The translations under genes and the position numbers were made by a program. The notes below the pieces were generated by a model. The model saw only the letters and a list, made by a program, of their open reading frames with translations. It ran no database searches and was not told where the DNA came from. Shown one piece after another: positions 10,286-20,537 of a stretch of DNA of 64,000 bases. The stretch comes from Chlamydiota bacterium. Its GTDB lineage: Bacteria; Chlamydiota; Chlamydiia; Chlamydiales; JAAKFR01. Numbering within the stretch: the first letter of the stretch is position 1; every line of letters starts with the position of its first letter. The stretch is from contig JAJFLX010000005.1 of NCBI GenBank assembly GCA_021772465.1, forward strand, positions 23,025 through 87,024. Direction: 5' to 3'.

Positions 10286-10777
10286 GTGATGAATTTTTTC
10301 CGTTTAGTCCTGCTTTTTCTTGTAGGTCTAGGTGCACTCTTTGTCGATTTTTGGACCAAAGCTTTTATCTACTATGGACATCTCTCTTTGCCCTATCCCA
10401 TTTTTCATAATTGGCTTGGAATCGATTTTCAACTCTCTTTAACCTACAACCGTGGGGCTGCTTGGGGGTTGTTCTCAAGTTTTCAAACTCCTTTGCTCAT
10501 CTTACGACTAGTGGTGATTGTGGCCCTGATACTTTACCTTGTTTTTGCCAAAAAAAGTAGGGGCTACGCATTTCCTCTTGTACTGATTATAGCGGGGGCA
10601 ATAGGAAATGTGGTCGACTACTTTCTCTACGGCTTTGTCATTGACTTTTTGAGCTTCAATTTTTGGGGCTACCCGTTTCCCATTTTCAATTTAGCTGACA
10701 CCTTCATTACAGTAGGGGTAGCCTGGCTTCTTCTTGCAGCGATTTTTACGAAAAAAAATGATGTTAAATGTCTCTAA
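10286..10777 (+). CDS. lspA: lipoprotein signal peptidase (signal peptidase II)
   Basis: NRGAAWGL, IIAGAIGNVVDY, FNLAD motifs; 4 TM helices; 163 aa. Confidence 0.9.
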   Translation: MMNFFRLVLLFLVGLGALFVDFWTKAFIYYGHLSLPYPIFHNWLGIDFQLSLTYNRGAAWGLFSSFQTPLLILRLVVIVALILYLVFAKKSRGYAFPLVLIIAGAIGNVVDYFLYGFVIDFLSFNFWGYPFPIFNLADTFITVGVAWLLLAAIFTKKNDVKCL

Positions 10778-11408
10778 ATGGATCAAGCTTCCTCTTCTTC
10801 TAGATGGAGAGGAGATGGCCAAGTTATTTGCATCGATTGACCCTTGCGCCCTCTATGAAGTACATCGAGTGGTAGGTGAAAGTCAATGGGTCCACTCGCT
10901 TTCAGATTTTTTAGAAACCTACAGAGACTACGTCTTCTCTCTTAAAGAGGGCAAAGAGCCCCCTCTTGCCCTTGTGAGGCAATTTGCTTATGCAATGAGT
11001 GTAACTTCTGATGCCTTCACTGCGCAAGAGGTAGGGGAGAAAAGAATTTTGCTCAAAGCGACTTTACCTATCGTTCAAATGCAACCTCACGCTCTTCGCT
11101 ACAGCCCCTTAGACGGAACCTTCCGCTCAGGTGTACACGGGGAGGGCACTATTTCCTGGGGCATTCAGCTCGGCTACCCACAAATTTATGAAGACCCCCG
11201 CACTCATTTGATCCAATCGACTCGAGAACTTACAAACGGCCCTCTTTTTCAACAGATACAGAAATGGGTGCGGGCGCATACTCGCCCTACTCCTTTTGAA
11301 GTCGATGGAAAAAAACAAATAGTGCCTGCGAGACTTGGCAAGAGCTGTTTTGCATGGATTGCACGCCATCCACACCTCCATACGGTTCATGTTGTCACCT
11401 CTTCCTGA
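10758..11408 (+). CDS. hypothetical protein
   Basis: Long ORF with no recognised motif. I prefer the internal ATG (MMLNVSKW...) at 10758 to limit overlap with lspA. The listed ORF starts at 10734. Confidence 0.45.
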   Translation: MMLNVSKWIKLPLLLDGEEMAKLFASIDPCALYEVHRVVGESQWVHSLSDFLETYRDYVFSLKEGKEPPLALVRQFAYAMSVTSDAFTAQEVGEKRILLKATLPIVQMQPHALRYSPLDGTFRSGVHGEGTISWGIQLGYPQIYEDPRTHLIQSTRELTNGPLFQQIQKWVRAHTRPTPFEVDGKKQIVPARLGKSCFAWIARHPHLHTVHVVTSS

Positions 11409-11515
11409 GCTGTTTTTTTCACGATAGGAAGTCATAGTCTAATTTTCGCTTGGCATAAATCGCAAAATTCCTTAAGGTCCAGTAAAAGAATCTTTTCTTT
11501 GACATAGGAGTATGT

Positions 11516-12529
11516 ATGAAGTTGAAAAATCTAATTTTGTCAGGGCTTGTCACAATGGCAGCGCCTCTGATTGGTCAGCAATACTGCTGCGATTACAACA
11601 ATAATTGCTGCGATACTGGTTCTGACTATTGTGCGAATGTATTTGTAGACTGGCTCTACTGGAATGTTCGCGATTGTAACCTAGACTTTGCCGCTACAGG
11701 CGATGATGCAACGATTCTCGAGGCATCAGGACGTTTGGTCTCTGTTGACACGGAATATGAAAGTGGTTTCCGCGTTGGAGCGTTTACCCCTTTCTGTAGC
11801 TATGAAATTGGGTTTGTTTATACTCGTTTTCATAACGATCACAACTGTGATGATGTCACACGTATATCGCAAGCTGATGGAAACCTCAATTCAACAGCTC
11901 TTCCAGAACAGGTAGGGCTAAACGCCATTAACGAAGCAGAAAGTGACTATGAAGTGGAGTTCGATCAACTCGATATCGCTTTTGTTCGTCACCACCAGCC
12001 TCAGTGGCTTTGCAACACGAATGTCACCGTTGGTGGTGGACTTCGATTTGCTTGGATCGATCGTGAAAGAAACATTGAGTACCGTAGCACAAATGATAAT
12101 GCGAAAGTTTTCCAGAAAACGGAGAACGATCTTTACGGTGTGTTTGTTGGTTTAGCGACTGATACTCAGTTCTGTGAGTGCTTCAGTTTCCTCGGTGAGT
12201 TCTCGATTGCTGCTTTTGTTGCTGAAAATGAGAGAAAGACTCGTGTCACGAGCACCCTCACATCTCCAGTCACAGACTTCTTCCTAGAAGATGATTGTGG
12301 GCACTGCGCTGTTGCTAATATCAACCTCGCACTCGGATTGGCATTTGACTTCAACTGCCTCTGTGATGCGTGTGCACGTTTGGCTGTAGGGTATGAGTTC
12401 CATAACTGGCTCAACCTTCCAAACTTCATCTCGCCTCAAGAGGCTGTGAACAACGCATGGCAACTAGATCGTTACTACGGATCTCTTGGATTTGATGGTC
12501 TTTTCCTAAGACTTGCAGTTAGCTTCTAA
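11516..12529 (+). CDS. cysteine-rich outer-membrane beta-barrel protein, paralog 1 (chlamydial MOMP-like/OmpA-family type)
   Basis: SD AGGAGTA upstream; signal peptide MKLKNLILSGLVTMAAPLIGQQ; CC-rich N-terminus (YCCDYNNNCCD); alternating beta-strand pattern; C-terminal ...FLRLAVSF. It aligns over its full length with 15574-16590 and 16718-17716. Confidence 0.75.
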   Translation: MKLKNLILSGLVTMAAPLIGQQYCCDYNNNCCDTGSDYCANVFVDWLYWNVRDCNLDFAATGDDATILEASGRLVSVDTEYESGFRVGAFTPFCSYEIGFVYTRFHNDHNCDDVTRISQADGNLNSTALPEQVGLNAINEAESDYEVEFDQLDIAFVRHHQPQWLCNTNVTVGGGLRFAWIDRERNIEYRSTNDNAKVFQKTENDLYGVFVGLATDTQFCECFSFLGEFSIAAFVAENERKTRVTSTLTSPVTDFFLEDDCGHCAVANINLALGLAFDFNCLCDACARLAVGYEFHNWLNLPNFISPQEAVNNAWQLDRYYGSLGFDGLFLRLAVSF

Positions 12530-12552
12530 CTTTAAGAACTAGGACTTTTGGT

Positions 12553-12593
12553 ATCCCCATCCTCGCTTTTGCGGGTGGTGGGGATTTTTTTTG
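12553..12593 (+). terminator. rho-independent terminator after OMP paralog 1
   Basis: ATCCCCA...TGGGGAT stem with inner GC pairs, followed by a T8 run, 24 nt after the stop codon. Confidence 0.6.
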
Positions 12594-12940
12594 TCATAAA
12601 ATTCTACATCGATCTTCTAGAAAGAAAAAAATATTTGATATCGCACCTCAATAGCACCCCATAAAAAGGAGGCTGTGCTAAAAAAATTATTGCACTCACC
12701 TTCAACCCTCTTTTAAAGCCTATTTTTTACCCCACTCTCTCAGAGGGTGCTCTGGGGCTACCTCTATCGCTTGTGGTGTAAAAACTAGACTTCAAATCTA
12801 GCTGAATTTGAGCACACTAAGTTTTTCAACTCAGCCACGAAATAACACCTGTCTGTTTTAAACAATGTTTACATCTTTTTAAAATATATTGGATCGTTGT
12901 ATTATTGCGTTTAGTTAATTTAAAACTAAAAAGAGGTATC

Positions 12941-13312
12941 ATGTCTTATAATACAATTGACGGTTCAAAGCCACCAGGAGTGGTTGATCGATTCAAATTC
13001 GAACAGGGTTTTCGCCTGAAGGTTCTCGTGGGTGTCATTTACCCTCTCGCACTTGCTGTGATTGCAACTGCCACCGTTTATGCATATAAGTTTTCATTTA
13101 GCGATTGGACATTCGAATCCCCAAAAGCCTGTATAGCTGGCATCTTATTTAGGTCATCTATAACGGCTATTACAACATTCGGATCCGTGTCCATGCTTGC
13201 CGGATATATAACCGCTTTCGAGCTCGCCGGTTGTGGGGTTAAAGCTGACACATGCGGAAATAGTGCTAATGATCGTATTAGCTCTTACCGTTCTGATAAG
13301 GGAAGGTTTTAA
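12941..13312 (+). CDS. small two-TM membrane protein, tandem paralog A (Inc-like candidate)
   Basis: ATG at 12941 preceded by AGAGG. The conserved N-terminal block DGSKPPGVVDRFKFEQGFRLKVL is shared with the next ORF. Two hydrophobic segments. Confidence 0.5.
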   Translation: MSYNTIDGSKPPGVVDRFKFEQGFRLKVLVGVIYPLALAVIATATVYAYKFSFSDWTFESPKACIAGILFRSSITAITTFGSVSMLAGYITAFELAGCGVKADTCGNSANDRISSYRSDKGRF

Positions 13313-13348
13313 AAGCAAAAATCCTGCACATGGTGCAAGAAGTGACAA

Positions 13349-13726
13349 ATGGAGGATAGTGTGAGTTATTTAACACTTGCAGATTCAAAGCAGCCTAGCT
13401 TTGTTGATCGAATCAAATTCGAACAAGGTTTTCGCCAGAAGGTTCTTATGGTTATCATCGGCACTCTCGCAGTAGCCGCGCTAGCAAGTGCCACAGTTTT
13501 TTCATTTAAGCTCTATATGCAGGATGGCTTTTGGGCTCGCAAAACTCTATGCCGTCTTTTTATTGCTGGTGGAATGGTTGGGGGCAGCTCTTTGACCGCA
13601 GTAGGTGCACTATTCACTACAGCTGCAATTGTGAAAGTGTGCCAATACGATACCAGTGCCCCCCTCAAAAGTGCTCAGCCCGATAATGATAGGCCAATGA
13701 TGCTTCTGTTTAAAGGCAGGGCATAG
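13349..13726 (+). CDS. small two-TM membrane protein, tandem paralog B (Inc-like candidate)
   Basis: ADSKQPSFVDRIKFEQGFRQKVL block, then two hydrophobic segments. Clear paralog of 12941-13312. Confidence 0.5.
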   Translation: MEDSVSYLTLADSKQPSFVDRIKFEQGFRQKVLMVIIGTLAVAALASATVFSFKLYMQDGFWARKTLCRLFIAGGMVGGSSLTAVGALFTTAAIVKVCQYDTSAPLKSAQPDNDRPMMLLFKGRA

Positions 13727-13755
13727 CACATGACCAATAGTTTGCTTCTTCATTC

Positions 13756-14316
13756 TTAGTTTGAGACGGTAAAAGGGGCAGCCCAACTTTGTGTAGAGAG
13801 AGAGTTCAAGACGCCATTTGCGCCACGTAGGTAAGTCTCTCCTTCAATAGACGATGTCCATGAAACAAAAGTGTTTCTATCATCTTGGATGACAATTTTT
13901 TCATCAATATTCCCTGCGAACTCAAGCGATGGATCTGATACCACAGTCACACTCGTCCACCCCTCACTTAGAATCCCAAACCCCACACAGACAACCGGCG
14001 AGCCATTCGAAGGGTCAGTCGCCTCCCAAGCGACTGCGATATCACCCACGGAATTCATGGAAACGCTTGGGATGTCGCTGGAGAGAGGCGTGAAGGAGCT
14101 TGCTGAAAGACTCACTGGAGTAGACCAGCTGCCTGACCCAGAAAGGCTAATCGAGGCCATGACCCCCTCAGAGCTATCGTTCCACACAAGCACCATATTG
14201 CCCGAAACATCAGTTGTTAACACATTTCCTTGGATAGTTGCTCCATAGGAAATGGAAGAAGAGAATGCAAAAACTAAGATCAGTTGACATATTTTGCTAT
14301 TAAATTTCATTTGCAT
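13756..14316 (-). CDS. secreted beta-rich repeat protein, hypothetical
   Basis: SD GGAG 6 nt upstream of the ATG, only 13 nt after the collagen-like gene stop. Signal peptide MQMKFNSKICQLILVFAFSSSISYG. Three internal repeats ending in W (GNMVLVWND / GDIAVAWEA / RNTFVSWTS). Confidence 0.5.
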   Translation of the reverse strand: MQMKFNSKICQLILVFAFSSSISYGATIQGNVLTTDVSGNMVLVWNDSSEGVMASISLSGSGSWSTPVSLSASSFTPLSSDIPSVSMNSVGDIAVAWEATDPSNGSPVVCVGFGILSEGWTSVTVVSDPSLEFAGNIDEKIVIQDDRNTFVSWTSSIEGETYLRGANGVLNSLSTQSWAAPFTVSN

Positions 14317-14329
14317 ATTAAACTCCTTA

Positions 14330-15316
<987 letters not shown>

Positions 15317-15573
15317 ATCCAATCCCAGTACTCCGTTAAAGAAAGGCACTTTATAAAAAATTTATTTTCGCAGCAATAAAATATTTTTTTGCCCGAGGAA
15401 ATCCATTAATTTTAAGTGAATAAAGATCAAATATTGGCGTTGATGCTCTCTTGCTCAAAACGCTACACTCGTTTCTTCTTCTTTAGTGAGAGGTGCGGAT
15501 TTTTTTTGCAGTATTTTCTTATCTATTGTACCTTCTCACTCCGCAACAATAAAACTGTCACTTAGGAGTAGAT

Positions 15574-16590
15574 ATGAACTGGAAAAAACTGATCTTGACG
15601 GGAGTCATTGGCTTGGCTGCCCCACTTGTTGCTCAGCAAGGGAGTTGTAATTATGACAACTCTTGCTGCGAAAGTTACCGAAACGACTACTGCACCAATG
15701 TCTTTGTGGACTGGCTCTACTGGAATGTACGAGACTGCGGTCTAGACTTTGTGTGGGATATCAGTGAAACGAATCAAGATGGGGGAGATGGACACCTTCG
15801 TTCAATTAACACCGATTACGAGAGCGGTTTCCGCGTGGGGGCTTTTGCTCCTTATTGTGGGTATGAATTTGGTTTTGTCTACACACGCTATAAAAGCGAT
15901 TGCAGCGGTCCTACAAGGGCTACAAGCACTGCAGGTAGTTTGGTTGGGACGAAGTTGATTTTCGAAAATCTACAGGCCAATATCAATGATGCGGTTGGTG
16001 AATACGACGTTGAGTTTCAACAGCTCGATTTGGCAGTTGGACGTCACTTCCAGCCACAGTGGCTCTGCAACACGGACGTAACGCTCGGCGGAGGGGTTCG
16101 GATCGCATGGATTGAAAGGGATAAAAACATCACGTACCAAGATTCAAGTGACATAACCAATATCTTTCAAAAAGTAGAAAATGATGCCTATGGGCTATTT
16201 CTTGGGATGATCAGTGACACGCAGTTTTGCAACTGCTTCAGCCTTTTCAGTGATTTCTCAATTGCTGCACTAGTTGCTGAAACTGAGCAGAGAGTTCACT
16301 ATGCAGGACCGGGGGATCTATCAACCTTTGATTTTGTAGTTCGTCAAGAGTGTGACTACTGCCCAGTTGTCAATGTCAACCTAGCGCTAGGACTTGGATT
16401 TGATTTCAGCTGTTTTTGCGACGCTGTTGCAAGGCTAGCTGTCGGCTATGAGTTTCACAACTGGATCAGCCTTCCTGGTTTCACCGATCCATTTGCGCTG
16501 CCTGCCGTATCGAAGTCTCTTTTCCTTCAAAAGGATAACAACAACCTAGGATTTGATGGGCTCTTTGTGCGCCTAGCGATCAATTTCTAA
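15574..16590 (+). CDS. cysteine-rich outer-membrane beta-barrel protein, paralog 2
   Basis: SD AGGAGTA; signal peptide MNWKKLILTGVIGLAAPLVAQQ. Shared blocks are NVFVDWLYWNVRDC, ESGFRVGAF, GFVYTR, QPQWLCNT, LAVGYEFHNW and LGFDGLFVRLAINF at the C-terminus. Confidence 0.75.
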   Translation: MNWKKLILTGVIGLAAPLVAQQGSCNYDNSCCESYRNDYCTNVFVDWLYWNVRDCGLDFVWDISETNQDGGDGHLRSINTDYESGFRVGAFAPYCGYEFGFVYTRYKSDCSGPTRATSTAGSLVGTKLIFENLQANINDAVGEYDVEFQQLDLAVGRHFQPQWLCNTDVTLGGGVRIAWIERDKNITYQDSSDITNIFQKVENDAYGLFLGMISDTQFCNCFSLFSDFSIAALVAETEQRVHYAGPGDLSTFDFVVRQECDYCPVVNVNLALGLGFDFSCFCDAVARLAVGYEFHNWISLPGFTDPFALPAVSKSLFLQKDNNNLGFDGLFVRLAINF

Positions 16591-16611
16591 GTAACGTTCG
16601 ACGCGAATGGT

Positions 16612-16650
16612 ATCCCCAGCTCTAGTACAACAGAGCTGGGGATTTTTTTT
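16612..16650 (+). terminator. rho-independent terminator after OMP paralog 2
   Basis: Perfect 12-bp stem ATCCCCAGCTCT / AGAGCTGGGGAT followed by T8. It shares the GGTATCCCCA left flank with the paralog-1 terminator. Confidence 0.65.
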
Positions 16651-16717
16651 GCAAATTTTCACGTAATCGTGTAGCGTGTTGCTTCCTTATGACCAAAAAA
16701 AATACTCAGGAGTAAAT

Positions 16718-17716
16718 ATGAACTGGAAAAAACTTCTACTGGTGGGAATAGCCTCTGTAGCTCTCCCTGTGACCGCGCAACAGTACTGCTGCGATTACTA
16801 CGATTGCTGTGAGGAAGAGTGCTTTGAATTGTATGGCGATTGGCTCTACTGGACGGTAAGAGAGTGTGACTTAAGCTACGTGTGGGATACCCCTGTCGCG
16901 AGCACCTCGTCAGCAGGTCCTCTCAAAGCAGTCGATCCCGATTTTACAAGTGGTTTTCGCATAGGAGTCATTGTCCCTTTTTGCGATTGGGAATTTGCAG
17001 CTCACTACACATGCTATGACAATTGCGAGTCAGATAGAACAAGAAGTGACACCGATACACTTTTCGGAACTCGATTGATCGTAGGCACCACGCAAGATGC
17101 AATCGATGAGGCGCGCTCTAAATATGATGTAGATTTCAATCAATTCGATCTAGAATTTGGTCGCACCTTTAGACCACAGTATCTTTGCAACACAGAAGTC
17201 CGCACCTTTGGGGGAGCACGTTTTGCGTGGATCGACCGAAAGCTCGATACAGTTTATCTCGATACAGCAACACCTCGATCTACCACGATTCATCAGAAGG
17301 TTGATAACGACCTCTATGGGCTCTACGTAGGGATGGGAAGTGAGACGACTTTGATGGGTTGTTTCTCGCTGTTTGGGGACTTCTCTGTTGGGGCTTTTGC
17401 CGTCTCATCAGATCAAAGCGTCTTCTATCAAACACTCGCTGCGGTTACCGAGACCGAGTACGATATTACTTCGAAGAATTACTACTGCGCTGCTGCAAAC
17501 GTCAATCTCTCTTTAGGGATGGGCTACACATTCTGTGGTTTCTGCGATAGTGATGTGATGTTGGCCATCGGTTATGAGTTCCACAATTGGATTAACCTCC
17601 CTGGTTTCATCTCTCCACAAGAGGTGATAGCAGCCGAGAGAAACCTGCAGCTCGATCAATTTTCCGGATCACTTGGATTCGACGGGCTCTTTGTTAGACT
17701 CGCTGTTAGCTTCTAA
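16718..17716 (+). CDS. cysteine-rich outer-membrane beta-barrel protein, paralog 3 (more divergent)
   Basis: ATG at 16718 preceded by CAGGAGTAAAT, the same SD context as the paralogs. Signal peptide MNWKKLLLVGIASVALPVTAQQ. Blocks YCCDYYDCCEEEC, GDWLYWTVREC, RPQYLCNT, LAIGYEFHNW and C-terminal LGFDGLFVRLAVSF. Confidence 0.75.
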   Translation: MNWKKLLLVGIASVALPVTAQQYCCDYYDCCEEECFELYGDWLYWTVRECDLSYVWDTPVASTSSAGPLKAVDPDFTSGFRIGVIVPFCDWEFAAHYTCYDNCESDRTRSDTDTLFGTRLIVGTTQDAIDEARSKYDVDFNQFDLEFGRTFRPQYLCNTEVRTFGGARFAWIDRKLDTVYLDTATPRSTTIHQKVDNDLYGLYVGMGSETTLMGCFSLFGDFSVGAFAVSSDQSVFYQTLAAVTETEYDITSKNYYCAAANVNLSLGMGYTFCGFCDSDVMLAIGYEFHNWINLPGFISPQEVIAAERNLQLDQFSGSLGFDGLFVRLAVSF

Positions 17717-18346
17717 TCCGTGCTTGTGACCTCCACCTTGTTTTTGCACAAAGTGGAGGTCAATTTCTTTCATCTCTTGCGTGATGGGGTGGGGAAAACT
17801 CATTCGTGTGTGGTAGAGTTCTATTCTATCTAAAGTGACCTTTGAACCATATTTTTGATCTCCCAAGATAGGACAACCGACAAGTGAAAGTTGGGCTCTA
17901 ATTTGATGGTACCTGCCGGTGACCAATTCAATTTCTGTCCCTCCATTCGGAAGTTGCTTGTAGAGAAGGCAACATTTTTTTCCTTTTGGATGCTCAAAAG
18001 CGAGGTGGTTGCCGTGTTCCAAGTAGTGGATAAGTTGTCCCGACCGGTCAGGAAGGCTCCCCTCATGACGAGCCCAGTAAATTTTACGAAAGCTTTTTGC
18101 ACGTTGAGCTGCTTGTAAACGAGAGAGCGCTTTGCTGGTGCGGGCAAATAAAACGATTCCAGAGACAGGGCGATCGAGCCGATGAACGGGCTCTAAAAAA
18201 ACTGCGCCCGGTTTTTTAAACTGCTTTTTAAGGAGGCGCTTTCCCACTTCTTGCAGAGATAGCTCTGAGCTTTGATTCGGTTGAGTGAGCATCCCGGCTG
18301 GCTTGTCCAAAGCGAGCAGGTGGTTGTCGAGGTAGAGAACTCTCAT
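17669..18346 (-). CDS. RluA family pseudouridine synthase
   Basis: LDKPAGMLTQP, HRLDRPVSGIVLFARTSKA and GRYHQIRAQL motifs. The ATGA overlap with the upstream TrmH-family gene suggests translational coupling. Confidence 0.85.
   Translation of the reverse strand: MRVLYLDNHLLALDKPAGMLTQPNQSSELSLQEVGKRLLKKQFKKPGAVFLEPVHRLDRPVSGIVLFARTSKALSRLQAAQRAKSFRKIYWARHEGSLPDRSGQLIHYLEHGNHLAFEHPKGKKCCLLYKQLPNGGTEIELVTGRYHQIRAQLSLVGCPILGDQKYGSKVTLDRIELYHTRMSFPHPITQEMKEIDLHFVQKQGGGHKHGLEANSESNKEPVESK
17728..17761 (+). terminator. hairpin after OMP paralog 3 (possible terminator, weak U-tract)
   Basis: GACCTCCACTT / AAGTGGAGGTC 11-bp stem with a 12-nt loop, 12 nt after the stop. It lies inside the 3' tail of the convergent pseudouridine synthase ORF. 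Confidence 0.35.
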
Positions 18347-19197
18347 CGACGTTGTCTAACCGCTTCATAAAGTAATAGGGAGGTGGCAATAGAGACATTT
18401 AATGAATCAGCTTCTCCATGCATAGGGATTTTTACCTGCAGTTTAGCCGATTCCATCCACACTTTCGAAAGTCCATACTGCTCGGTACCTACTGCAATGG
18501 CAATTCCCTTTTTGAGATCGACTTGCGTGTACTCGAGGCTCGCAGAGGGAGTAGCAGCCACGACCTCGATCTCGCGCTGAGAGAGCCACTCGAGTGTCTC
18601 TTGGCTGCTCGCTTCAATGACTGGCAGGGTAAAAAGCGTCCCGACACTTGCTCGAACCACATTGGGGTTATGAATATCTGTACACCGATCACAGACGATC
18701 AGAGCACTGGCTCCCGCTGCATCACAGCTACGCAAAATGGTTCCCAAATTTCCCGGCTTTTCAATAGCCTCTGCAACGACTATTAGGGGATTATTTTCTA
18801 CTTCGAGCTGCTCGAGTCCAAGATGTTTTTGGTGTGCAAGCGCGAGCAGCCCATCGGGGCGATCGCGGTAAGAGAGCTTTCTAAATACCTGCTCATTGCA
18901 AGGGTAGATTTCAACGCCCCGGATCTTAAGAGCTGAGATGATTTTGTGCTCACTACTTCCTAAAAAGAGTGATTCACAAGTGAACAGTCTGACAAAATTT
19001 GTAGAGGCAAGGGCGCGACTTATCTCTCTAAACCCTTCTATAAGAAAAAGTTGTGTTTTATCGCGCTCGGAGCGTTTCCAAAGGCGTCGAGCCTCTTTGA
19101 TTTTTGGATTTGCGCTGCTAGTTAGCTCCAACACTCCACCTCGCAAAACTACCAGAAGGGATATCGAAAGGTCCTTTGAGGAGCAAGTCGCCCCCAT
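18343..19197 (-). CDS. TrmH/SpoU family RNA 2'-O-methyltransferase
   Basis: SpoU motifs EKPGNLGTILRSCDAAGASALIV, VGTEQYGLS and IPMHGEADSLNVSIATSLLLYE. The true start may be the GTG/TTG near 19131-19134, which would reduce the 80-nt overlap with the upstream gene. Confidence 0.85.
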   Translation of the reverse strand: MGATCSSKDLSISLLVVLRGGVLELTSSANPKIKEARRLWKRSERDKTQLFLIEGFREISRALASTNFVRLFTCESLFLGSSEHKIISALKIRGVEIYPCNEQVFRKLSYRDRPDGLLALAHQKHLGLEQLEVENNPLIVVAEAIEKPGNLGTILRSCDAAGASALIVCDRCTDIHNPNVVRASVGTLFTLPVIEASSQETLEWLSQREIEVVAATPSASLEYTQVDLKKGIAIAVGTEQYGLSKVWMESAKLQVKIPMHGEADSLNVSIATSLLLYEAVRQRR

Positions 19198-19936
19198 CGA
19201 TATCTCCTCGAGTAAAAATTTGTCTCATAAGTTGCTTCAAAACGAGAGGAGTATAACCAGGTGTGTGGCAGCTTAGAATTACAAACAGGGGGGTCTCTGA
19301 CAGTACTCGTTTGCACTGCTCGAGGAGCAAAATCAAATCGTCTTCAATTTTGAAAAGTTGATTTCCCTTCCCTCGACCGAAAGTGGGAGGGTCGAGCAAA
19401 ATAGCGTCAAATTTTTCACCTCTTCTGGCAGAGCGCTCCAAAAATTTTCGAGCCTCTTCAGCTATCCAACGAATGGGATACTGGGCCATCTCGTTGAGTT
19501 TTGCATTATCTGAAGCCCAATGCACCATTCCCTTGGCGACATCGAGGTGGGTGACAGCAGCACCAGCGCGCGCTGCTGCCAGTGAAGCGCCACCTGAGTA
19601 GGCAAATAAATTGAGAAATCGAGCCCCTTTTCTTAAGTGGGTTTCCAACCCCTCCCAAAGCGCAGCATGCTCAGGAAAGAGACCGAGGTGACCAAAACTC
19701 GTTCGTTTGAGATGAAATTTGAACCCTCCGTGATCTACTGTCCACGCCTCAGGAATTTTACGGCGCAGCTTCCACTGTAGATCTGGTGTTCGAGTGAAGT
19801 GAGCATCGGCGCATGTCCAAGTTGATTGGGAAAGCGAAGGTCTCCAGACCGCCTGAGCGCATGGGCGAATGAGCGTGTACTTACCAAATTGCTCGAGTTT
19901 CTCCCCATTACCGCTATCAATTAAGGTATAAGTCAT
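19118..19936 (-). CDS. class I SAM-dependent (rRNA, RlmI/YwbD-like) methyltransferase
   Basis: FLNLFAYSGGASLAAARAGA (SAM motif I) and ILLDPPTFGRGKG (DPP motif). 272 aa. Confidence 0.75.
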   Translation of the reverse strand: MTYTLIDSGNGEKLEQFGKYTLIRPCAQAVWRPSLSQSTWTCADAHFTRTPDLQWKLRRKIPEAWTVDHGGFKFHLKRTSFGHLGLFPEHAALWEGLETHLRKGARFLNLFAYSGGASLAAARAGAAVTHLDVAKGMVHWASDNAKLNEMAQYPIRWIAEEARKFLERSARRGEKFDAILLDPPTFGRGKGNQLFKIEDDLILLLEQCKRVLSETPLFVILSCHTPGYTPLVLKQLMRQIFTRGDIDGGDLLLKGPFDIPSGSFARWSVGAN

Positions 19937-19961
19937 GCGATAAGTATAAGAATCTAAAGAG

Positions 19962-20537
19962 TTAAATCAAATCACAAGCTTCTGGGGGCATCCAGTGGGA
20001 CTCTTTTCCCTCCCACTTTACACTGCACCCGATAGGGTTAGTCACAGGGGTGGAGATCTCTTTATTAGAGAGGCATTCCTCGAGGGCTCTCTCGAGATCA
20101 TTGACATGGATTTTTGAAGAGTCTCGGGGGGAATCGACTGCTCTTCCTGTGTAAATTAATTTTCTATTCGCATCGAAGAGGAAGAAGTGTGGCGTTTTAA
20201 GCGCCCCATAGGTTTTGGCAACTTCTTGAGAGGCGTCATAGAGATAGACCCAAGGGAATTTTAGCTCTTGCATGCGTTCTACCATGTGGGGGAAATCATC
20301 CTCAGGGTAGGTGTTTTTACTATTAGAGTTAATGGCAACAAAGGGGACTTCAGAGAATTTTTCAGCAGTTTGTCGCGTCACTTCGTCTGAACCAATTACA
20401 TAGGGACAGTGGTTGCAAGTAAAAAAAATAACAAGAGGCCCTGAGGAGGCAAAGTCTTTTAAAGAATAGTTTTTACTATCTGTCGCTGGAAGCAGAAAGT
20501 CGGGTGCTTTTGATCCTATAGAAAGAGTAAATGGCAT
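19962..20537 (-). CDS. thioredoxin-fold thiol-disulfide oxidoreductase (redoxin/TlpA-like)
   Basis: [10 protein letters not shown] CxxC motif in a thioredoxin-like context. 191 aa. Confidence 0.75.

Follow-up and report, generated by a model that had tools for sequence, protein, structure and literature searches.

A 64-kb stretch of a Chlamydiota metagenome-assembled genome (MAG), referred to below as the window, contains a 6.2-kb cassette (the islet under study, 11516-17716) between hyp224 and the 3' end of rluA (Table 1). Three genes on the + strand encode paralogous cysteine-rich outer membrane proteins (OMP1, OMP2 and OMP3), and approximately 2.9 kb between the first and the second holds four more open reading frames (ORFs), two on the + strand for small membrane proteins (TM2a and TM2b) and two on the - strand for a collagen-like secreted protein and a secreted protein of 186 aa (sec186). 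Upstream of the cassette are the genes of NrdR, DksA, LspA and hyp224, and downstream of it those of an RluA-type pseudouridine synthase, a SpoU methylase and an S-adenosylmethionine (SAM) methyltransferase. An initial annotation, made by reading the DNA without database searches, had described three tandem OMP paralogs on the same strand, an interruption of ~3 kb with four ORFs between paralogs 1 and 2, and flanks of core genes (nrdR-dksA-lspA on one side, an RNA-modification operon on the other). Each of these elements is upheld, the tandem array by the ORF map, pairwise identity, a common AGGAGTA motif, signal peptides, CC clusters and a C-terminal Phe. The accompanying claim, that every one of the seven products belongs to the envelope or is secreted, is supported for the OMPs, the collagen-like protein and sec186 by their predicted signal peptides, and is weakest for TM2a and TM2b.

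The OMP array and its terminators

Pairwise identity among OMP1, OMP2 and OMP3 is 53/45/43%, the value for OMP1 and OMP2 being 53% (tblastn E 1e-86 to 1e-119) and the overall span being quoted as 43-54%. The sequence AGGAGTA stands as a Shine-Dalgarno (SD) sequence 3 nt before the ATG of each gene (repeat family D6; 11506-11512 for OMP1), and its position indicates that the true start of OMP3 is ATG 16718, not GTG 16676. The predicted signal peptides end in A or G directly before QQ, and the mature N-termini have CC...CC clusters (QQYCCDYxxxCC); each protein has 14-16 Cys, with CxC/CxxC pairs in the C-terminal half, and all three end in LGFDGLFxRLAxxF, a C-terminal aromatic beta-signal. Synonymous sites (dS) are saturated among the three paralogs, so the duplications are old. 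PF05150 (Legionella_OMP) matches the three proteins with 61.7, 57.0 and 74.4 bits, compared to a gathering threshold of 25.4 bits, over model positions 4/13-279 of 281, and none of the three matches the Chlamydiaceae major outer membrane protein (MOMP) family PF01308 at E <= 0.1. In passing the PF05150 threshold over nearly the full model, all three resemble the Legionella major outer membrane protein, which is a porin with disulfide-linked subunits, but they differ from it in their Cys-rich N-terminal cluster QQYCCDYxxxCC and in their chlamydial host.

Database relatives of the OMPs are 27-34% identical to them, with the Cys-rich N-terminus and the motifs DWLYWxxRxCxLDYA, VGYEFHxW and LGFDGLFVR in common. 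Elsewhere they are encoded by single genes or by tandem arrays of four, next to housekeeping or polysaccharide-export genes, and in the loci examined elsewhere, genes resembling those of the collagen-like protein, TM2 or sec186 are never beside them. The four-gene tandem arrays of Cys-rich PF05150 OMPs are in locus L001 (7210-12461), where the array adjoins a Wza-type polysaccharide exporter and a dTDP-sugar pathway, and in locus L086 (3-4942). A search for relatives on plasmids, aimed at the plasmid-borne MOMP-like gene of Rhabdochlamydia, gave no match.

The closest known system is the OmpA family of Waddlia chondrophila and Estrella lausannensis, grouped with the MOMP-like families of Simkania and Rhabdochlamydia. 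Like the window OMPs, the members of this family are predicted barrels of ~330-370 aa with many Cys in CC/CxxC-type clusters, encoded by multiple, clustered gene copies; the clusters CC, CxxC and CxCxC that mark the Waddlia and Estrella family have counterparts in the window OMPs when these are set against the published description of that family (PMC2878342). Waddlia has eleven clustered beta-barrel OMPs with 13-19 Cys (PMC2878342), unlike the window with its three copies. Such proteins dominate the disulfide-linked, sarkosyl-insoluble outer membrane complex of Waddlia (PMC2878342, PMC4184618), and seven of the eleven rank among the top 40 proteins by abundance in this fraction of its elementary bodies (PMC4184618); Estrella has ten members of the Cys-rich OmpA family (PMC6490308). 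Disulfide linkage of Cys-rich OMPs in chlamydial elementary bodies has been reported (PMC2878342). By Cys content, size, clustering and Pfam family, the predicted OMPs of the window are new members of this known kind of Cys-rich barrel, and by analogy with Waddlia they most likely act as abundant porin/adhesin barrels of a disulfide-linked outer membrane complex.

Strong hairpin-T8 terminators (T1 and T2) follow OMP1 and OMP2 and have the left-hand motif GGTATCCCCA and the right-hand motif GGGGATTTTTTTTG in common. Their description in the initial annotation as clear terminators with a common left flank is confirmed by the folding energies and by the motif GGTATCCCCA, as is its remark that OMP3 is followed by just a hairpin with a weak U-tract (14 bp, 17727-17762). 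With no more than one mismatch, GGGGATTTTTTTTG occurs at three sites in 64 kb, compared to 0.08 expected; two are T1 and T2, and the third, GCGGATTTTTTTTG, is in a terminator relic upstream of OMP2. A match to GGTATCCCCA at 52838 is within a coding region and was dismissed as chance. In a repeat search, the third copy of the terminator right half (15481-15510) is 82-91% identical to T1 and T2, and the region upstream of OMP2 (GTTTCTTCTTCTTTAGTG--AGAGGTGCGGATTTTTTTTGCA) can be aligned with the OMP2-OMP3 spacer (GTATCCCCAGCTCTAGTACAACAGAGCTGGGGATTTTTTTTGCA). The relic is 67 nt upstream of the OMP2 start, which is identical to the spacing between T2 and the OMP3 start; it keeps the right arm and the T8 tract, its left arm is mutated, and it no longer folds (z +0.26). 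Given a relic with T2-like spacing, OMP2 would once have been directly preceded by a co-oriented unit ending in such a terminator. This arrangement supports a later arrival, relative to the array, of the ~2.9 kb that T1 and the relic enclose (12594-15464), and the decayed terminator copy upstream of OMP2 agrees with the initial proposal that the array was interrupted secondarily. Two histories are possible: either the terminator was duplicated as the insert entered, or the insert took the place of a fourth OMP copy. The insert opens with 347 nt of AT-rich non-coding DNA (GC 0.36), and the GC content at third codon positions (GC3) of TM2a, the collagen-like gene and TM2b is 0.37, 0.38 and 0.41, respectively, compared to a window background of 0.498 +/- 0.034; the low GC3 of the insert genes fits a separate history and is no proof of one.

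Gene order at the junction in other chlamydiae

For comparison of gene order, DksA was used to retrieve 80 loci from species-representative genomes, all of which are Chlamydiota MAGs, and all window proteins from 8.3-22.2 kb were searched against these loci with tblastn. With all 80 loci from this phylum, the window is identified as chlamydial; the best DksA match is 83% identical, and the species representatives include no close relative. The order nrdR-dksA-lspA-hyp224 is kept almost everywhere; hyp224 itself matches no Pfam or NCBIfam model; it immediately follows lspA in 73 of the 80 loci with 29-57% identity and is conserved throughout the phylum. Past hyp224, the window departs from the rest. 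In every one of the 43 hyp224-spoU loci, the methyltransferase-spoU-rluA operon follows hyp224 on the + strand, and in the closest relatives (L009, L017, L023, L025 and L051, with hyp224 53-57% identical) it is found ~470-510 nt past hyp224. In the window, rluA, spoU and the methyltransferase gene are on the - strand, i.e., inverted relative to 43/43 relatives. A gap of 25 nt separates the methyltransferase start from the stop of a thioredoxin-like gene, an arrangement that creates a new co-directional string of four genes. At the other end of the operon, homology of RluA to its relatives stops at aa ~191-201 of 225, the ancestral end having been lost; a lineage-specific C-terminal tail of ~25-30 aa is encoded antisense to the OMP3 hairpin, and rluA and OMP3 share 48 nt at their 3' ends. 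Homologs of the OMPs, the TM2 proteins, sec186 and the collagen head are present in none of the 56 loci that reach at least 3 kb past hyp224, and the alignment finds none of the seven genes at the junction in these informative loci, so the description of the block as lineage-specific is sustained. As judged by this comparison, the cassette is lineage-specific and is accompanied by an operon inversion.

The same junction is variable in more distant chlamydiae. In nine Parachlamydiaceae-type relatives (L011, L013, L014, L018, L021, L038, L040, L050 and L064), 1.2-8.5 kb of variable cargo is between hyp224 and the methyltransferase gene, including genes of Ppx/GppA, CinA, a DDE_3 transposase of an insertion sequence (IS), an 882-aa ankyrin-repeat protein, a FIST-domain protein and a MORN protein. 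Because the cargo of these distant relatives is variable, the junction can be regarded as a recurrent hotspot of gene flux.

The assembly was checked independently against Logan short-read assembly contigs of sequencing run SRR15505517. Contig L088 is 100% identical to window positions 10541-12744 (hyp224, OMP1 and its terminator), L089 to 14849-16902 (the 5' part of the collagen-like gene, OMP2 and the start of OMP3), and L090 to 16875-20185 (the 3' end of OMP3, rluA, spoU, the methyltransferase gene and the thioredoxin-like gene). Misassembly of the MAG as the source of the inversion or the insertion is thus ruled out at the junctions hyp224-OMP1, collagen-OMP2-OMP3 and OMP3-rluA through the thioredoxin-like gene.

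Table 1. Features of the cassette, its borders and other RNA genes of the 64-kb window (window coordinates; z, folding z-score)
Feature	Position	Strand	Evidence or remark
hyp224, 224-aa protein	10734-11408, probable start ATG near 10815		between lspA and OMP1
OMP1, predicted Cys-rich beta-barrel OMP, 337 aa, 16 Cys	11516-12529	+	PF05150 E 7e-17
T1, intrinsic terminator of OMP1	12550-12593	+	dG -27.4 kcal/mol, z -5.1
Insert between intact T1 and terminator relic, ~2.9 kb	12594-15464		repeat families D11/D12, 2915-nt spacing; alignment
TM2a, orphan small membrane protein (predicted), 123 aa	12941-13312	+	
TM2b, TM2a paralog	13349 (or GTG 13361) to 13726	+	
sec186, predicted secreted, beta-rich, 186 aa; second gene of putative collagen operon	13756-14316	-	signal peptide
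Collagen-like protein, predicted secreted	14330-15316 (longest ORF from GTG 15349)	-	PF01391 E 1.5e-20
Terminator relic, OMP type	15465-15510	+	fold z +0.26
OMP2, paralog, 338 aa, 14 Cys	15574-16590	+	PF05150 E 2e-15
T2, intrinsic terminator of OMP2	16609-16651	+	dG -28.4 kcal/mol, z -7.1
OMP3, paralog, 332 aa, 14 Cys	16718-17716	+	PF05150 E 1e-20
Hairpin after OMP3, 14 bp, weak U tract	17727-17762		dG -21.9, z -4.0
rluA-spoU-methyltransferase operon, right border of rearrangement	17669-19936	-	
RNase P RNA gene	34577-34944		
16S rRNA gene, complete, could be used to place the lineage phylogenetically	62436-63985		

Products of the insert

The collagen-like gene starts at ATG 15316 or TTG 15323, behind GGAGTA. 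Its product is laid out as a predicted Sec signal peptide (cut before EG), a 17-aa N-terminus ending in CDC (15212-15220), a collagen region (14738-15205) and a C-terminal head (14333-14737), with CDC directly before the first Gly-X-Y triplet. The signal peptide and a match to the collagen family PF01391 (E 1.5e-20, 73 bits) corroborate the earlier identification of a secreted collagen-like protein with CDC before its collagen region. The 52 Gly-X-Y triplets form runs of 6 and 46 and are mostly GPT, with Pro in position X of 30 and Thr in position Y of 37. Collagen rises ~0.29 nm per residue, so that the stalk would be roughly 45 nm long.

The head, 135 aa in length and beta-rich, has no homologs in a word-indexed search of 5.8 billion proteins and no match in Pfam, PHROG, the PDB or IMG/VR. 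A HMMER scan of 1.84 billion representatives produced just two weak matches to it, P0014 and P0015, which are propeller-type proteins composed of ~45-aa BNR/Asp-box-like repeats (SPQIAATENGNVYVVWVD...SSxDxGxxF); as homologs they were rejected, the similarity being judged compositional. The AlphaFold2 (AF2) model of the head monomer is all-beta and unreliable (predicted local distance difference test score, pLDDT, 44). With the head of BclA from Bacillus anthracis, for which the reference sequence was checked to be 100% identical to PDB entries 2r6q and 1wck, it forms a weak co-linear alignment from end to end (shuffle z 2.1-3.0) that is not significant by BLASTP (E 0.59). Foldseek searches with the pLDDT-44 model returned matches enriched in C1q/TNF domains, all non-significant (E at least 0.015, TM-score at most 0.26). 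A jelly-roll head of the C1q/BclA type is a reasonable guess at roughly even odds rather than a finding.

Two known kinds of bacterial collagen-like protein are comparable in architecture. Lcl of Legionella, a Gram-negative intracellular bacterium of amoebae, has a signal peptide, a short N-terminal anchor, a collagen stalk and a trimeric head, binds the bacterial surface and host glycosaminoglycans, and is a substrate of type II secretion (PMC11162425). The window protein has the same 'lollipop' layout, but its counterpart of the 30-residue amphipathic helix that anchors Lcl is a 17-residue peptide with CxC, its repeat is mostly GPT instead of GPQGLPGPKGD(K/R)GEA, and its head is an orphan instead of DUF1566; the Lcl equivalog NF046116 scores 74.6 bits compared to a cut-off of 500, the match being confined to the collagen repeats. 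BclA of B. anthracis, together with BclA1-3 of C. difficile and Pcl of Pasteuria, is similar in having a collagen region dominated by Gly-Pro-Thr and a head of 135 aa that is all-beta, as the window head is predicted to be. It differs in that the window head has no significant sequence or fold match to it, and in that BclA is without a Sec signal and is bound through its N-terminal domain to BxpB in the spore exosporium, whereas the window protein is of Sec type and chlamydial; no BxpB-like sequence was detected in sec186. The model of streptococcal Scl1/Scl2 (SclA/SclB in NCBIfam) scores 84.5 bits through the repeats, compared to a cut-off of 325, and the window protein has no LPXTG motif.

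Other chlamydial genomes also encode collagen-like proteins, of which no description was found in the literature. Two secreted ones are encoded in an unrelated Chlamydiia MAG (L032; 1162-2355 and 5555-6532, both on the - strand) a few kb upstream of dksA. They have GATGVTG-type repeats, an N-terminal domain of ~130 aa whose last residues, YACH(N/S)R, immediately precede the collagen region, and C-terminal domains of ~150 aa without a Pfam or PDB match; kinship between the window head and the L032 heads was considered, and none was found. A Cys just before the collagen helix is present in all four chlamydial collagen-like ORFs examined (one in the window, two in L032 and one on contig L083, described below). 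In collagens, collectins and C1q, Cys beside the collagen helix commonly forms inter-chain knots, and by analogy the N-terminal Cys residues of the window protein probably knot the three chains of the trimer together, which is a simpler explanation than a bond to the OMPs.

An origin of the insert in a phage or some other mobile element, with the collagen-like protein as tail fibre and the product of the gene downstream as its assembly partner, is largely refuted and can be given only a very small probability. In its favour, the full-length protein matches tail-fibre PHROGs that contain collagen repeats (E down to 5e-36), the putative fibre gene has a small gene directly after it, and the GC3 of the insert is atypical. 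The PHROG matches vanish when the collagen repeats are removed, however, leaving 0 matches for the head; both proteins have Sec signal peptides, unlike tail fibres; IMG/VR contains no relatives; and other phage genes, an integrase, att-like repeats and, in the whole window, tRNA genes are lacking. A defence-system origin was likewise discarded after PADLOC gave no matches.

The second gene of the putative operon, sec186, starts 13 nt after the stop of the collagen-like gene and has its own SD sequence, AAGGAG. It had been annotated initially as a secreted repeat protein, of which secretion is retained, on the strength of the signal peptide of the 186-aa protein, and the internal repeats are not (z -0.3 to 2.4). 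A likeness of the motif SVGDIAVAWEATDPSNG, noticed by eye, to BNR/Asp-box-like repeat proteins was refuted by an hhalign probability of 1.9% and a repeat z of 2.4 or less. There is no Pfam family, PDB or PHROG match for sec186, there are no relatives in JGI metagenomes or in IMG/VR, and its AF2 model has a pLDDT of 34. Its one homolog is P0013, which is 65% identical; the ratio of nonsynonymous to synonymous substitution rates (dN/dS) is 0.19, from which it follows that sec186 is a real gene under constraint.

P0013 is encoded on a 1.2-kb contig (L083, 1-1247) of run SRR15505517, from which the window sequence was also recovered, and is also recorded on a 330-kb NCBI contig. On L083, 58 nt before P0013, a same-strand ORF ends in ...CLPGPQGPPRPTGPTEPVRLS; it contains '...CLPGPQGPPRPTGPT...', a repetition of the C-LPGP(P/Q)GPP motif that opens the collagen region of the window protein, ends after a few imperfect triplets, and seems to be without a globular head. 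Downstream of P0013 there is not a TM2 gene but a convergent Amidase_3 gene, which is absent from the window. L083 is probably a second (paralogous) locus of the same genome rather than a locus of a different species, one reason being that the database has no OMP relatives of more than 34% identity. Since collagen-like and sec186-like genes recur together beside the amidase gene, the conserved unit, as judged from the two loci, is the collagen/sec186 pair and not the seven-gene block. Occurrence of the inserted ORFs elsewhere, unlinked to OMP genes, had been named in the initial annotation as a sign of chance juxtaposition; the collagen/sec186 pair does recur elsewhere without the TM2 genes, on a contig too short to show whether an OMP gene adjoins it.

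TM2a and TM2b are 41-44% identical to each other (E 1e-14) and have in common the N-terminal motif VDRFKFEQGFRxKVL and an end of the form ...KGR(F/A). The start of TM2b is likely GTG 13361 behind GGAGGA, which gives MSYLTL... in parallel to MSYNTI... of TM2a. TM2a has a strong predicted transmembrane (TM) segment at aa ~27-50 and a weaker hydrophobic stretch at aa ~64-97; in both proteins the Kyte-Doolittle value of the first segment is up to 2.6, and that of the second, 14-17 residues away, is 1.0-1.6. Their initial annotation as tandem paralogs with two TM segments is correct as to tandem paralogs on the + strand and less secure as to the second hydrophobic segment, which is moderate. TM2a and TM2b have no match in Pfam, NCBIfam, PHROG or PADLOC, and no relatives in the 80 loci, JGI metagenomes or IMG/VR. 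With a dN/dS of 0.8-0.95 between them, there is no sign of purifying selection. A terminator-like hairpin with a T-run for the - strand is at 13322-13340, between TM2a and TM2b, and is the first such signal downstream of sec186; as predicted from its position, the collagen/sec186 transcript may be antisense across all of TM2b.

TM2a and TM2b could be fast-evolving proteins similar to the inclusion membrane (Inc) proteins of chlamydiae, ordinary inner-membrane peptides, or decaying genes. Their small size, lack of a signal peptide, two nearby hydrophobic segments, fast evolution and restriction to one lineage are Inc-like features; unlike in Inc proteins, the second lobe has weak hydrophobicity and is set off by a loop of 14-17 residues, and no homology to known Inc proteins was found. 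In a host-directed version of the locus, the TM2 proteins would be Inc-like substrates of type III secretion, and the collagen-like protein would leave the cell, e.g., through type II secretion, and act as a mimic or binder of host matrix or of C1q-type ligands. The hydrophilic N-terminus of the TM2 proteins followed by two hydrophobic stretches, without a signal peptide, would be consistent with this, as would their being fast-evolving orphans, since many Inc proteins evolve fast and are orphans; the weak co-linearity of the collagen head with a BclA/C1q-type domain and the ankyrin-repeat protein at the equivalent junction of a relative point in the same direction. Effectors nevertheless seem quite improbable, because classic bilobed Inc domains have a shorter loop and a stronger second lobe than the TM2 proteins, a dN/dS near 1 fits decaying genes equally well, and the C1q-like resemblance is non-significant in BLASTP and Foldseek alike.

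If decay is the explanation, TM2a, TM2b and perhaps the collagen-like gene would be degenerating or unexpressed ORFs in junk DNA at a rearrangement breakpoint. The dN/dS of the TM2 pair, the lack of homologs of the TM2 proteins and the collagen head in the collections searched, the few imperfect triplets of the collagen-like ORF on L083, which may be a remnant, and the - strand hairpin between TM2a and TM2b are all compatible with such partial non-functionality. It is very unlikely, however, given that both TM2 ORFs are open for ~123 codons with matching hydropathy layout and the same ...KGR(F/A) end, that the collagen-like ORF keeps 52 in-frame triplets, a signal peptide and an SD sequence, and that sec186 is under purifying selection.

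Origin and significance of the interrupted array

The initial annotation proposed that the seven genes constitute one functional surface module, in which the barrels would be anchors, the collagen trimer a fibre tied by its N-terminal CxC to the OMPs or their complex, and the other genes of the insert accessory. All of the genes lie together and are specific to the lineage; the mature collagen-like protein begins with an N-terminus of just 17 residues that ends in CDC, which makes a short covalent tether plausible; the OMPs have 14-16 Cys, and OMPs of this kind are disulfide-linked in chlamydial elementary bodies (PMC2878342); and the Cys just before the collagen region recurs in L083 and in the two L032 proteins. 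Linkage of the genes is not kept, however: the second collagen/sec186 pair is beside an amidase gene without TM2 genes, the other PF05150 arrays (L001 and L086) have no collagen genes, and the equivalent junction in relatives collects IS and ankyrin genes. The array and the collagen/sec186 pair are encoded on opposite strands, each with its own promoters and terminators, the insertion is later than the OMP duplications (a still-recognisable relic compared to saturated dS), TM2a and TM2b are without purifying selection, and the common role of Cys beside a collagen helix is the inter-chain knot. A single module is not supported by these observations and is considered unlikely.

A more specific variant, for which the probability is low, is a nap of BclA/C1q-like collagen trimers on the infectious particle, tied by CxC into the disulfide network of the OMPs, with sec186 as a basal adaptor. 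If true, this would be a Gram-negative intracellular counterpart of the Bacillus exosporium nap, a new mode of fibre anchoring and the first such fibre in Chlamydiota.

The reading that fits best, with a probability of about 0.6, is that the array and the insert are a juxtaposition rather than a machine, probably in a variable hotspot; the position of the collagen pair inside the OMP array is most likely incidental. The proposed order of events begins with an ancient local amplification that would have produced a head-to-tail array of PF05150 OMP genes, each with a strong SD sequence and a terminator. Approximately 2.9 kb of orphan DNA would then have entered the OMP1-OMP2 spacer, leaving an intact terminator on one side and a decaying copy on the other, and in the same region the rluA-spoU-methyltransferase operon would have been inverted. 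The functional cargo of the insert would be the two-gene operon of the collagen-like protein and sec186. The collagen-like product is predicted to be exported by Sec and to form a trimeric 'lollipop' with a CxC knot, a ~45-nm stalk and a 135-residue beta-rich head, and sec186 may be its co-translated secreted partner. By analogy with Legionella Lcl and Bacillus BclA, the trimer would act outside the cell as a host-directed adhesin or a surface fibre.

Several points weigh against this juxtaposition and its proposed cargo. For expression and localisation of the products in this organism the argument is from sequence alone, and for the roles of 'head' and 'partner' it is from architecture alone (pLDDT 44 and 34 in the AF2 models). 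The right half of the terminator relic could persist for another reason, e.g., as part of the OMP2 promoter. The independent contigs leave 12745-14848 (TM2a, TM2b, sec186 and the 3' part of the collagen-like gene) uncovered. Contig L083 could come from the same genome or from a co-occurring relative, and at 1.2 kb it ends in collagen repeats, so that an OMP gene upstream of the second collagen-like gene is possible. A word-indexed protein search found no OMP relatives of more than 34% identity, but the same search missed OMP3, which makes this absence weak evidence.

Composition of the outer membrane is the most variable and least understood trait of chlamydiae outside the Chlamydiaceae, and sets host range, antigenicity and the rigidity of the infectious stage. 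To this the array adds a divergent lineage of the Cys-rich barrel family known from Waddlia and Estrella. The practical reach of the findings is modest, since this chlamydia has not been cultured and its orphan partner genes come from a single sequencing run. As predicted from its layout, the collagen-like protein extends the theme of bacterial collagen adhesins by a new variant, in which the head is an orphan, the N-terminus is unusual and bears Cys, and the secreted partner is conserved. Collagen-like proteins are encoded by the window, by L083 of the same run and by the unrelated chlamydial MAG L032, and if they are true surface fibres or secreted host-binding proteins, they would represent an overlooked class of chlamydial adhesins, comparable to Legionella Lcl.

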